A stretch of 41,924 nt of DNA. Source: Eledone cirrhosa (Eukaryota). The stretch covers positions 1-41,924 of the forward strand of contig CAXHJY010001622.1 of the NCBI GenBank assembly GCA_964016885.1, read 5' to 3'. Position numbers and translations under genes: made by a program. Below, piece by piece: positions 5,175 to 41,594 of the stretch (positions are counted from its first letter, which is position 1; the number at the start of each line of letters is the position of its first letter). The notes beneath the pieces are model-generated. The model did no database searches. It saw only the letters and a program-made list of their open reading frames with translations, and was not told the origin of the DNA.

Positions 5175-5430
5175 CAAGGAAGGCATAGCATATTGTTAAT
5201 ATGATATCCCCGAAATATATATAATGAAATAGATATGGTTTTATAAATATAGTTTCCATTTATTTAATATTGTAAATATACTCCAAATATTTGTCGAGTG
5301 CTTTTATATCAGTTATAAATATTTACTAGTTGTAACCCAACAATTTTAAATATAACTTTCCATGTATATATAAATATATATATATACAATGATATTAAAT
5401 AAATGGAAACTACATTTATAAAACCATATT

Positions 5431-5492
5431 TATTCTATGATATATATTTCAAGGGTACCAAAAACTTTGGTACGCTTTCATTAGACAAAATA
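5431..5492 (-). ncRNA. Hammerhead ribozyme with mutated core (CUAAUGA)
   Basis: Inverted copy of 5619-5680 with a G5>A change. Confidence 0.6.
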
Positions 5493-5618
5493 CAAAGTGT
5501 GTTTCATAAATTTTGACATAGCCAAGGAAACATACCTTATCAGTTGAATTTTTCTTGGATAATTTAACTGATAAGGTATGTTTCCTTGGCTATGTCAACA
5601 TTTATACAACACACTTTG

Positions 5619-5680
5619 TATTTTGTCTGATGAAAGCGTACTAAAGTTTTTGGTACCCTTGAAATATATATAATAGAATA
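5619..5680 (+). ncRNA. Type I minimal hammerhead ribozyme
   Basis: UAUUUUGU CUGAUGA AAGCGUACUAAAGUUUUUGGUACCCUU GAAA UAUAUA UA / AUAGAAUA; 8-bp stem I, long stem II, palindromic stem III. Confidence 0.8.
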
Positions 5681-6380
5681 AATATGGTTTTATAAATATA
5701 GTTTCCATTTATTTAATATCATTGAATATTTACTCCAGAAATCTGTCGAGTGCTCTGAATCAGTTATAAACATTTATATATGTTGAATTTCCAACAAGAG
5801 AAAGAGAGAGAGAGAGAGAGAGAGAGAGAGAGAGAGAGAGAGAGAGAGAGAGAGAGAGAGAGAGAGGGAGTAAGGTTCCCTTAATTCTTAAATTGCCAAC
5901 ATTTCGATCACTGGCTTTCATAGAAACGGTAATATGTTGGTTGATGTTTCTTCATTTGTCAATGTATCTATATATATTTTATCTAAAAGCATTTCATCAT
6001 AATTTTATACAAGAACCTTTGTTATGTTATGTTCCAAACACTAGTTTCATGATGACAAAGTTAGTTATATTACTAAACTACACCAAATTCTTACTTATTT
6101 TTGAAATTATTTGAAAACCACAGGCAGTGTCTTTTATTAGAAATTTGGTAATAAAAGGGATAAGTTATATTTTTGATCATTTCTGCGGGATCAACGTTGA
6201 CTTGGGGCTAAACAACCACAACAAGTAACTACACATTAGATAATATAGTCCTAGATACACTTATGCCTGAATAAAAGACAGGATGATCACAGTTCTGATC
6301 AGTTCTGCTTGAAGTGGATTTCGTTTTAAAAATTATTTTGCTGCTTCTTCGTTTAGCCAATAGAAAGGTTTCTCAAGAAT

Positions 6381-8255
6381 TGTTGTTGTTGGTGTTGGTG
6401 GTGGCGGTGGCGGTGGTTGTGGTGGTGGCGGTGGTGTTGTTGTTGTTGTTGTTGGTGTTGGCGGCGGCGGTGGTTGTGGTGGTGGCGGTGGTGTTGTTGT
6501 TGCTATTGATGTTGGTATTGTTGTTGTTGTTGGTGTTGGCGGCGGCGGTGGTTGTAGTGGTGGCGGTGGTGTTGTTGTTGTTGGTGTTGGCGGCGGCGGT
6601 GGTTGTGGTGGTGGCGGTGGTGTTGTTGTTGCTATTGATGTTGGTATTGTTGTTGTTGTTGTTGGTGGTGGTGGCGGCGGCGGTGGTTGTGGTGGTGGCG
6701 GTGGTGTTGTTGTTGCTATTGATGTTGGTATTGTTGTTGTTGTTGTTGTTGTTGGTGTTGGTGGTGGTGGTGTTGCTGTTGGTGTTGTTGTTGTTGTTGT
6801 TGTTGGTGTTGTTGGTGTTGGTGTTGGTGGTGGTGGTGTTGTTGTTGGTGGTGTTGTTGCTGTTGGTGTTGGTGTTGGTGTTGGTGTTGTTGTTGGTGTT
6901 GTTGCTGTTGGTGTTGGTGTTGGTGGTGGTGGTGTTGCTGTTGGTGGTGGTGTTGTTGCTGTTGGTGTTGGTGTTGGTGGTGTTGTTGCTGTTGGTGTTG
7001 GTGTTGGTGTTGGTGGTGTTGGTGCTGTTGGTGTTGGTGGCGGTGTTGCTGTTGGTGTTGGTGGTGTTGGTGGTGTTGGTGGTGGTGTTGGTGTTGGTGG
7101 TGGTGTTGGTGTTGGTGTTGGTGGTGTTGGTGTTGGTGTTGGTGGTGTTGGTGGTGTTGGTGTTGGTGTTGGTGTTGCTGTTGGTGTTGGTGGCGGTGTT
7201 GGTGTTTGTGGTGTTGGTGGTGGTGTTGGTGGTGTTGGTGTTGGTGTTGGTGGTGTTGCTGTTGGTGTTGGTGGTGTTGGTGGTGTTGGTGGTGGTGTTG
7301 GTGGTGGTGTTGCTGTTGGTGTTGGTGTTGGTGGTGTTGGTGTTGTTGCTGTTGGTGTTGGTGGCGGTGTTGGTGTTTGTGGTGTTGGTGGTGGTGTTGG
7401 TGGTGTTGGTGTTGGTGTTGGTGGTGTTGCTGTTGGTGTTGGTGTTGGTGGTGTTGGTGGTGTTGGTGGTGTTGCTGTTGGTGTTGGTGTTGTTGCTGTT
7501 GGTGTTGGTGGCGGTGTTGCTGTTGGTGTTGGTGGTGTTGGTGGTGTTGGCGGTGGTGTTGGTGGTGGTGGTGTTGCTGTTGGTGTTGGTGGTGTTGGTA
7601 GTGTTGGTGGTGTTGGTGTTGCTGTTGGTGTTGCTGTTGGTGTTGGTGGTGGTGTTGCTGTTGGTGTTGTTACTGCTGTGTTAGTGTTGGTGGTGGTGTT
7701 GTTGCTGTTGGTGTTGCTGTTGGTGGTGGTGGTGGTGTTGCTGTTGGTGTTGTTACTGCTGGTGTTGGTGTTGGTGGCGGTGTTGATGGTGGTGTTGCTG
7801 TTGGTGTTGGTGGTGGTGTTGCTGTTGGTGTTGGTGGTGTTGGTGGTGTTGGTGTTGGTGTTGGTGTTGGTGGTGTTGGTGGTGTTGGTGGTGGTGTTGG
7901 TGTTGGTGGTGTTGGTGGTGTTGGTGGTGGTGTTGGTGTTGGTGTTGCTGTTGGTGTTGGTGTTGTTGTTGCTGTTGTTGGTGTTGTTGTTGTTGTTGCT
8001 GTTGGTGTTGTTGGTGTTGTTGTTGGTGTTGTTGTTGCTGTTGGTGTTGTTGTTGATATTTATGTTGTTGTTGGTGGTGGTGTTGGTTTGTTGTTGATAT
8101 TGTTGTTCTTGGTATTGTTGTTGCTGCTGTTGCAGCAGTTGATGGTGTTGATGATGATGACGACTACTACGACGATGACGACAACGACAACGACGACGGT
8201 GGCGATGACGATGGCGACAATGATGACGATGACGACGATGATCATGATGATGACG
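6381..8255. repeat. Compound trinucleotide repeat (GTT/GGT/GCT/GGC, ending in GAT/GAC)
   Basis: Directly visible; source of the poly-L/V and poly-W/C ORFs. Confidence 0.95.
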
Positions 8256-39395: not shown

Positions 39396-40800
39396 TATAT
39401 ATATATATAGATAAATCTACCAAGAGTTTACGGTAGTGTCCAATCCGTATGAAGAACTCAATGTAATCCGGATATCATGGAAAGAAGAGATGCATTCAAA
39501 AATCACTTTCGGTGAAAGATAAACGGAATACAGAGTTAAGATAAAGTATTAAAAAAATAATGAATAAAACAATGAAACAGTTCCTTATATTAAACAAAAA
39601 AAGTTCATTATTTAACGATCGTTTCTAGGACATATATGTGTTAGAATTGGTATGCATATTCAACAGATCTATGTACAAAATTATACAAAATTATACAAAT
39701 TATCAAATATAATATACATACCAACACATACATATGCCGTCTTCAGAAATAATATATATATATATATATATAATATATATATATATAATATATATAATAT
39801 ATATATATATATATATATATATATATATTATATATATATATTATATATATATATATAATAATAAATAATAATACCAGGTTAACGGAAATGGCATAAGGTT
39901 TACTTGCTAGTGCCGGTTGCATCTCAGCGTACTCAATAGGTTAGGTTATTGATAAATCCCAGAGTAGACACAAAGCATATATATATATATATATATATAT
40001 ATATATATATATATATATATGTATATTTACAAATATATATAAATGCATATATATGTTTGTGTGTATGTATATTTACATACACATATATTACATAAATCTC
40101 TCCTTCCATCTTTACGCCATCTCTCACGCACCTCCTCTCTCTCTCTCTCTCTCTCTCTCTCTCTCTCTCTCTCTCTCTCTCTCTCTCTCTCTCTATGTAT
40201 ATATATGCACAGAAGATTTGGATATTTCACTTTTTATTTCAATTCCATTTCGATTCTATTTATTTTTTTATTCCACATACCACCATTGCGAAACGGATTT
40301 AGGTTTCGAGGTTCAAATTCGTCTACAGAACAGGTTTGGATTTTGAAATTTAAATCTGTCCAGTAATCATGGCAGTTGCCAATATAAGATTGTCTTTATT
40401 GACTTATATCGAGACAGACAAATTGTATTCACTTTAATTAGTTTATTTCATTAATAGCTGACTGTCTGTTGCAATGCAAACACGTTTTGTGTTTATCATA
40501 TATTTTAATGGATATATATATACATATAGGATGGTGAGCGGGTCTTATGTATAGCTACTTAGGATTTCAAAAACCATTGTTTAGAATTTTTCAGCGATCT
40601 GTTATCTAAAGTAAAGGAAAGCCAACATCGTGTCGTAATACACACATTAAGTACACCGGATCTTGTGGGCTTACCATTTACATATTGATATGGAATATCA
40701 TATATAAACATTTATAAGCGTGTGTATATATATATATATATATATATATATATATATATATATATATATATATATATATCTTTATATATATATATATATA

Positions 40801-40988
40801 GGAACAAGTAAGACCCCGACGGCTGAGCTCAAGCCGTTTCGACGGCTAATTCTGGAATTAGCCGTCGAAACGGCTTGAGCTCAGCCGTCGGGGTCTTACT
40901 TGTTCCTATTACCCACTCTACTACCCCTAAGTATTGAGTACTTTGGTGCGTTATGGTCCACTTGGTTCCTTACCACATTTCCTTCGTT
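40801..40988 (+). mobile_element. PLE terminal fragment (family X), fold-back
   Basis: Centre ~40855. Confidence 0.9.
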
Positions 40989-41173
40989 ATATATATATAT
41001 ATATATATATATATATATATATATATATATTTATATATGTATATATATGTATATGTGTGTGTATGTATGTGTGTGTGTATATATATAATATATATATATA
41101 TATATATATATATATATATATATATATATATATATATATATATGTATGTATGTATGTATATATGTATATATGT

Positions 41174-41369
41174 ATCATCATCATCATCATCATTTTACGT
41201 CCGCTTTTCCCTGCTTGCAAGGGTGGGACGGGTCTTATTCAGCACAGCATCATCTCCACTCGTCACGGTCCTTCGTCATCTCCACCGTGAGCTTCAATGA
41301 TCTGAGGTCTGTTCTCACCACCTCCGCCCATGTTTTTCATGGTCTACCTCTACCACGTCTTCCTTCAAC
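41174..41369 (-). mobile_element. 3' end of another RTE LINE family with (GAT)n tail
   Basis: [38 protein letters not shown]. Confidence 0.82.
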
Positions 41370-41403
41370 TATATATATATATATATATATATATATATAT
41401 ATA

Positions 41404-41594
41404 CGTTATTCCGGGTTGAATCGGAGGTAACCACAGTAAGTAAGGTACTCAATACATTGCAGAGTATAAAAGTTTTAATATAGATGAGATTCTACAGGAC
41501 TAGAACTGTTTCATTCTTAGAAATCATCAGGAATCTGATGATTTCTAAAGAATGAAACAGTTCTAGTCCTGTAGAATCTCATCTATATTAAAAC
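41404..41594 (-). mobile_element. Fold-back HHR element in (TA)n
   Basis: Minus arm 41404-41535, plus arm 41535-41594. Confidence 0.85.
41488..41535 (-). ncRNA. Type I hammerhead ribozyme
   Basis: GAUUC CUGAUGA UUUCUAAGAAU GAAA CAG UUCUAGUC CUG UA / GAAUC. Confidence 0.8.

Follow-up and report, generated by a model that had tools for sequence, protein, structure and literature searches.

The stretch of Eledone cirrhosa DNA considered here is contig CAXHJY010001622.1 of assembly GCA_964016885.1 (41,924 nt, forward strand; hereafter the window), and it raises the question of why one short box, TYGAGTRC, recurs at a similar position in front of (TA)n microsatellites in tails that are otherwise dissimilar. 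The initial annotation of the window treated this box as a signal 40-70 nt from the 3' ends of several element families, downstream of hammerhead ribozymes (HHRs). Our analysis revealed that the box forms the 3' side of a hairpin whose strands covary, a feature which that annotation had overlooked. The hairpin is genuine and conserved, a cis element of an already known group of retroelements, the Hydra-clade Penelope-like elements (PLEs), and its comparative distribution suggests a likely role in setting where copying starts.

The box was present at every site named initially, with the minus-strand coordinates 11939, 39929 and 41445 denoting low ends. In the window, TYGAGTRC has 16 matches, whereas 100 dinucleotide Markov simulations averaged 3.3 and never exceeded 8, in agreement with the view that it is commoner than chance; eight of the 16 are copies of one family, termed X, which lowers the number of independent cases below 16. 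For 15 of the 16 boxes, the next microsatellite starts 49-80 nt past the box start on the same strand. The box at 15922(-), which lies 385 nt from (TA)n and lacks a bulged hairpin, was excluded as a chance match. Positional enrichment was also observed in a genome sample of 97 arbitrary 10-kb stretches (970 kb of the 3.0-Gb genome), where, of 130 boxes, 59 had a (TA)4 run 40-79 nt away on their 3' side and 11 had one at that distance on their 5' side.

The proposed order of ribozyme and box was upheld in one direction, as boxes accompanied by an HHR have it upstream and on the same strand (HHR cores at 5627+, 11441+, 31056+, 41530-, 35069- and 26360-). The reverse does not apply to every ribozyme family: the canonical box was not seen in the short inverted arms, nor in the HHR families at 9120/9430- and 27137+. 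With a hammerhead descriptor that was weak, missing several window ribozymes, and that was not used to estimate the share of HHR families with a hairpin, 78 hammerheads had the hairpin downstream in 10 cases, upstream in 1 and on the opposite strand in 5.

The hairpin has the form 5'-RCUC-[stem-loop]-UH-GAGY(RC). It is closed by 15 of the 16 window boxes, with ACTC 6-30 nt upstream of the box, a family-specific stem, a two-letter bulge and GAGT, and the upper stem varies by family yet remains paired. Amongst the 130 genomic boxes, stem closure occurred with a bulge of 2 nt in 55 cases, of 0-1 nt in none, and of 3 nt and 4 nt in 7 cases each. Pairing was also scored blind, by grouping 139 boxes 5' of (TA)n into 42 clusters and choosing the RCTC partner without looking at the upper stem. 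A partner was found in 20 clusters, and the 22 without one, mostly single copies, are probably chance matches or decayed. In the 20 clusters, 50 of 60 upper-stem cells were paired (6 of 15 in the control set), compared to a permutation mean of 34.2 and with 0 of 10,000 permutations reaching the observed value, counts that are not true probabilities because the families are related.

In a further set of 25 clusters from this genome, picked on Watson-Crick pairs only and including a few related ones, the outer pair was A-U in 15 and G-C in 10, and the internal non-Watson-Crick pairs were G-U in 7 cases, A-C in 1 and other in 5, which favors the sense strand. Flank information was low across these clusters, in accordance with the idea that the box is better conserved than its surroundings, the core columns being fixed by the search in this set. 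In marine relatives recovered from metagenomes, the outer pair was G-C in 50 of 57 cases, U-A in 4 and mismatched in 3; the 5' regions of two such loci (L262 and L265) have two hairpins each whose lower stem reads TCTC/GAGA, adding a third compensatory version of the outer pair.

These pairing data bear on the view that the hairpin is a neutral relic of common ancestry, or chance. All carriers are indeed related Hydra-type elements, and when bulged hairpins near (TA)n were screened for without bias, microsatellite-like, low-complexity stems prevailed and TT-GAGT was limited to 8 clusters, compared to 3 in the control. The flanks are unrelated while the core and its pairing persist with three different outer pairs, and covariation across animals largely rules this explanation out; we regard it as barely credible.

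A looser form of the box, T(T/C)GAGC, gave a mixed outcome: the matches at 12698+ and 11045- belong to true GCTC/GAGC hairpins, the one at 34957- to a decayed hairpin and the one at 19419- to a hairpin whose 5' half is lost, and many further matches fall in the hammerhead loop III of family X or arise by chance. Amongst known motifs, the RNA polymerase III B-box, which has the linear consensus GWTCRANNC and a tRNA-like context, was rejected, as the letters here change together, in the manner of a paired stem, and TTGAGTAC/TAGAGCAC depart from the consensus. The K-turn and the iron-responsive element were likewise rejected, their pairing pattern being different. Searches against Rfam returned no gathering-score covariance-model match, and only microsatellite-driven sub-threshold matches among those listed (150 of 155).

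The hairpin carriers are the 3' ends of Hydra-clade PLEs inserted in (TA)n. In the clade description by Craig et al. (2021; PMC8557442), these elements have a C-terminal endonuclease (EN+), RW(K/R), DKT and CxCx5C motifs, an HHR and (TA)n targets; the CCHH motif is absent, with CxxC and CxH around conserved E and N, and DKG is changed to DKT. The elements of this study share with that description the motifs, the GIY-YIG domain, the HHR, the (TA)n targets and the inverted pseudo-long terminal repeat (pLTR) that is tailed on one side. The pLTR hammerhead, (TA)n insertion and inverted pLTR with a one-sided tail, all traits of the clade, are present.

Family X, for which a first look at the genome gave 74,151 candidates, 150 of them scored, is the 3' end of an element with reverse transcriptase (RT) and GIY-YIG domains that is broken in the window at 36564-37757. 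An intact copy has a single 717-aa open reading frame (ORF) with YRDD and VIY...YIG motifs, with GIY-YIG at its C terminus, and by eye its protein has CNC-x5-C, CNLC before E, CKH after N, RWR and DKT. Four further window families (F5294, F12698, F31195 and F41452) lead into Hydra-type ORFs. RWR or RWK plus DKT occurs in all five families, and the CNC-x5-C linker also in F5294; the five proteins are mutually 36-52% identical (36-47% amongst X, F5294, F12698 and F31195). A Pfam scan of the window Hydra fragments gave no match; some homologues carry PF01541. The AlphaFold model of the family X protein was confident (pLDDT 93), and a fold search with it returned telomerase RTs as the best matches (TERT 3du5, E 2e-8, TM 0.34-0.40), a modeled likeness that carries no information on RNA binding. 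By eye, most copies of family X have the U3-A8 variant of the hammerhead core. A head-to-tail array of near-identical family X elements elsewhere in the genome (L128, G000:C1:437198001-437208000), with a period of 3531 bp and intact 717-aa ORFs, makes the family look recently active; in its hammerhead, the core is U3-A8, stem II is long and loop III is palindromic.

Copies of these families mostly end 3-10 nt before hairpin 1 (the short end) or before a second hairpin, hairpin 2 (the long end). In family X, 66 of 93 anchored copies end in (TA)n, and 64 of these 66 do so at the two sites (31 short, 33 long). In F5294, 52 of 63 copies end in (TA)n (33 short, 17 long), and in F41452, 60 of 89 (34 short, in two clusters, and 26 long). 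Offsets to RCTC were measured in the subset with a clean anchor, with TA microhomology allowed for, and were 5-8 nt (short) and 3-6 nt (long) in family X, 5-7 and 3-9 nt in F5294, 2-9 and 7-10 nt in F12698 (one copy each), and in F41452 mostly 5-6 nt with some at 12-14 nt. Contigs of uncertain kind, which may be the assembly's own sample, have loose TA ends at the same two places. The notion that the box signals an end 40-70 nt downstream did not survive these measurements, as the box sits 5-8 nt behind the alternative short end; the long end usually falls just before the second hairpin, which the insertion does not copy.

Most junctions have 1-3 nt of TA microhomology, and TAT or ATA occurs in the linker of 17 of 25 clusters, compared to 8-12 of 25 in other windows. 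The linker trimers would suit an explanation in which the hairpins have a 5' untranslated region (UTR) role in translation, in packaging or in the folding of the ribozyme, and the proximity of the ends merely reflects annealing of TA-rich linkers to a (TA)n primer; hairpin 2 is indeed located shortly before the start codon, and F41452 ends sharply without a hairpin 2. TA-like trimers are common throughout the tails, yet almost all family X ends fall at the two hairpin-adjacent sites, and the offset recurs amongst families with 36-52% identical proteins. We consider such an explanation very unlikely.

Head-to-head insertions provide a further line of evidence. In 55 of 56 pairs, one arm is short and one is long, a combination expected in about half of them if ends were chosen freely. 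Within an insertion, the two arms have at most one difference in 17 of 23 and 9 of 12 cases, compared to 20% and 24% between insertions; these shared subfamily letters fit one source RNA, and also gene conversion. The pairing of ends is what an account based on RNA processing leaves unexplained, in which cleavage or termination of the transcript 5-8 nt ahead of each hairpin supplies ordinary RNA 3' ends from which the enzyme then copies. Such processing would account for the same two ends and for structure in the RNA strand, and RNA-seq read ends of a lizard element coincide with its start sites (PMC11167929). In the same source, 3' extensions left the product of the Poseidon_Ac element unchanged and hammerhead cleavage was unneeded, and we consider RNA processing unlikely.

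A second hairpin follows the long end where the element continues into the next unit, and was found in four of the five genome families with a known continuation (X, F5294, F12698 and F31195). The continuation patterns for F5294 and F12698 demanded RCTC, leaving only the rest of the hairpin unselected, and that for F31195 did not; second hairpins often have only 2-4 upper pairs. For the 11946 family, no continuation was found in 10 loci. Full F41452 elements with a Hydra ORF (L215, L216 and L219) carry a box-like remnant at the second site and have sharp long ends regardless, some of which bear 3-4 extra letters before (TA)n.

The arrangement was also sought in metagenomes, where a scan with a 109-protein alignment gave 77 loci from marine relatives, 42 of them with an ORF start (35 clusters). 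Under a strict rule, at least one hairpin was located just upstream of the ORF in 27 of 42 loci, compared to 4 on the reverse strand and 1 in the ORF interior, and two hairpins were found in neither control (0 and 0). The bulge was U-H (UU, UA or UC) in 38 of 38 of these hairpins, although any two letters were permitted. A rule asking for the box only, which was loosened after viewing the metagenome sequences, found a box in 34 of 42 loci and two boxes, spaced 54-82 nt, in 29 of 42; in the two controls, one or more boxes occurred in 10 and 2 and two boxes in 1 and 1. A hammerhead core was located upstream in 15 of the 19 metagenome loci with enough sequence.

By eye, the hairpin is visible in three of the six published Hydra consensi (PMC8557442): Hydra-1_Ajap has twin hairpins and Hydra-2_Ajap and Hydra-2_Amil have one each. 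It is degenerate in Hydra-1_Amil and Hydra-1_Crog, and none was seen in Hydra-1_Obim. In the Naiad/Chlamys consensi, a search with six exact 8-mers, in which line breaks hide matches, gave 18 box matches, none of them a full hairpin by eye.

Altogether, the comparative evidence makes it probable that the hairpin, usually present twice downstream of the hammerhead, acts in RNA as a docking site that fixes the RT start. Under this reading, the transcript would span the pLTR and both hairpins and run on into the ORF, and one protein subunit would bind each hairpin, recognizing its CUC/GAG stem together with the U bulge while the upper stem acts as a spacer. The GIY-YIG domain would cut both (TA)n strands, and each DNA 3' end would prime cDNA some 5-8 nt 5' of one hairpin, giving every target strand a single start; 1-3 nt paired to the UA-rich linker may help. 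The two cDNAs would then join head to head, and the PLE "tail" would be the interval between the two starts. Because this interval carries hairpin 1, which would be copied only from the downstream start, the box appears 40-70 nt from the long ends; hairpin 2 would never be copied unless copying runs through a tandem unit. The initial proposal of a cis signal for RT or endonuclease recognition or for 3'-end formation is thus compatible with the data, although not as a linear box. A more specific version is put forward tentatively, as somewhat less likely than not: tandem hairpins on a single RNA would each recruit a telomerase-like RT, and the two RTs would prime from opposite strands of the (TA)n break, each at a constant 5-8 nt 5' of its own hairpin, with the hairpin spacing setting the tail.

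Fixed offsets would also suit a nuclease, and the hairpin could act in DNA, with the endonuclease recognizing it in cDNA or in a double-stranded intermediate, cutting a fixed distance away and leaving a one-sided tail. Craig et al. put the tail down to resolution by the endonuclease (PMC8557442), and the D. virilis Penelope endonuclease needed the tail to recognize plasmid DNA (cited in PMC11167929). Covarying stems would be meaningless in duplex DNA, the 7-to-1 excess of G-U over A-C is on the sense strand whereas first-strand cDNA is antisense, and the internal starts of Poseidon_Ac were mapped on RNA templates (PMC11167929). Action in DNA is rather unlikely.

Several observations weigh against the docking reading. 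Sixteen of the 34 short ends of F41452 lie further upstream, in the cluster 12-14 nt before RCTC, and this family showed no canonical second hairpin, only a box-like remnant, in 3 of the 3 continuing loci amongst 10. The six mappable ends of the metagenome loci are spread more widely, at 2, 7, 8, 8, 11 and 11 nt before the stem; only 11 of the 42 loci have two hairpins under the strict rule, and 8 of 42 have no box. The unselected (blind) set had no strand bias (G-U 5, A-C 4), and naked-RNA folding gave lower-stem probabilities of 0.05 and 0.15 in two of eight hairpins. Both arms copy the same upstream region, so that one RNA would need strand displacement. Additionally, the box was not seen in the Poseidon_Ac RNA of Fig. 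S1 (PMC11167929; PDF letters, order uncertain), so the analogy with that element discussed below is one of position only.

Structured RNA handles such as the R2 3' UTR and the eel UnaL2 stem-loop position target-primed reverse transcription in long interspersed nuclear elements (LINEs). These handles are single and inside the copied region, 5' of the start, whereas the Hydra signal is double and 3' of the start. In L1 twin priming, two primings yield inverted segments and the two cDNAs copy different segments, unlike the arms of Hydra head-to-head insertions, which copy the same upstream region. A small RT-bound stem also fixes the start or stop of copying in the template-positioning elements of telomerase RNA and in the hepatitis B epsilon bulge; the telomerase boundary element is located 5' of the template and stops copying, and epsilon templates protein priming from its bulge.

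A parallel by position is Poseidon_Ac, for which the part of Frangieh et al. (2024; PMC11167929) considered here describes two internal RT starts that bound the tail, a requirement for RNA 3' of the starts, and a protein that cuts and extends both strands of AT-rich DNA. Two internal tail-bounding starts, cutting and extension of both strands and AT-rich targets are thus held in common. Poseidon_Ac differs in belonging to another clade and in having its starts in an AC-rich stem loop, with no repeated conserved signal described in that text, and its starts were called non-homologous to the target, compared to 1-3 nt of TA microhomology at most junctions here. The tail is 54-90 nt long in the present elements and 30-40 nt in the account of Craig et al. 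(PMC8557442), and in that main text the word "hairpin" is absent and the tail is ascribed to endonuclease resolution. The elements, hammerheads, tail and internal initiation are already known, as the literature attests (PMC8557442; PMC11167929; PMC4209133; PMC3846280; PMC7229834; bioRxiv 10.64898/2026.07.22.740005). A description of the hairpin was not found in open-access full text, and subscription journals, Repbase/Dfam notes, figures or the GenBank supplement of PMC11167929 could hold it.

Within the window, hairpin 1 of F5294 (ACTC / CAAA-TTTG / TC / GAGTGC) is located at 5280..5301 (+) and that of a relative with upper stem CAGA-TCTG at 5732..5753 (+, HHR core 5627). Family X has hairpin 1 at 9804..9829 (-), in the long arm of a head-to-head pair, and at 11247..11272 (+), 11645..11670 (-), 25086..25111 (-), 25421..25446 (-) and 32488..32513 (+). 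An F41452 subfamily has its hairpin 1 at 11508..11528 (+, HHR core 11441), F12698 has a GCTC/GAGC variant at 12682..12705 (+), and F31195 has one with upper stem CGGAGT-ACTTCG at 31161..31202 (+, HHR core 31056). Other families contribute a GCTC/GAGC variant at 11038..11075 (-), the 11946 family hairpin with upper stem TAAGG-CCTTA at 11939..11966 (-), and a hairpin with upper stem TGGG-CCTA at 39929..39965 (-). The decayed hairpin at 34950..34997 (-, HHR core 35069) has an intact GCTC form elsewhere in the genome, and a member of the same family retains only the box at 19412..19419 (-), a TA run replacing the 5' half.

Four insertions in the window display both arms or ends. The head-to-head F12698 insertion at 26175..26630 has a long arm (-) with HHR 26360 and a hairpin at 26241-26264 with a TA bulge, and a short arm (+) that stops before the hairpin. 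The family X insertion at 35866..38801, a 5'-truncated Hydra-type PLE, has an inverted long arm with the hairpin at 35912-35937 (-), the broken RT + GIY-YIG ORF at 36564-37757 (+) and a short end at 38801. A family X fold-back mini insertion at 40801..40987 combines a short arm (-) with a long arm (+) bearing the hairpin at 40915-40941, and an F41452 fold-back mini insertion at 41402..41594 has a long arm (-) with HHR 41530 and the hairpin at 41445-41465, and a short arm (+) that stops 5-6 nt before the hairpin.

Other features were also recorded. The repeat at 15636-15952, which carries the 15922(-) box in an unbulged hairpin, recurs beside family X insertions and at L134 and L136. Two tandem units of about 310 bp at 8904-9539 (-), with hammerhead cores 9120 and 9430, are retrozyme-like, and a related fold-back element lies at 38850-39390; neither has the canonical hairpin, and a CAGAGCA-like stretch is located at the base of their long stem. 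The element at 26755-27323 (+) has hammerhead 27137 and a tail that reaches (TA)n over 130 nt, lacks the hairpin, and is possibly a PLE of another clade. An uninterrupted 1213-codon frame at 607-4248 (+) with apurinic/apyrimidinic (AP) endonuclease, RT and C-terminal C2H2 fingers resembles an intact RTE-type LINE. Long imperfect trinucleotide and 9-mer arrays at 6250-8250 and 22400-23580 give spurious low-complexity ORFs, and the output of a repeat finder on the window was dominated by microsatellites.

PLEs are the closest mobile relatives of telomerase, and how they choose their RNA and their internal start sites, and why insertions have an inverted arm with a one-sided tail, have been open questions since their first description. 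A conserved, covarying and duplicated hairpin of 20-40 nt at a fixed offset to both ends offers a mutational test and a structural target, and the docking reading would explain the long-puzzling one-sided PLE tail. The hairpin also serves as an annotation marker for non-coding Hydra derivatives. If it works in trans, it would be a minimal cis signal for RNA-templated insertion, and if two enzymes do act on a single RNA, it would form part of a portable address of about 100 nt through which whatever RNA lies upstream is integrated from the two sides of a break.

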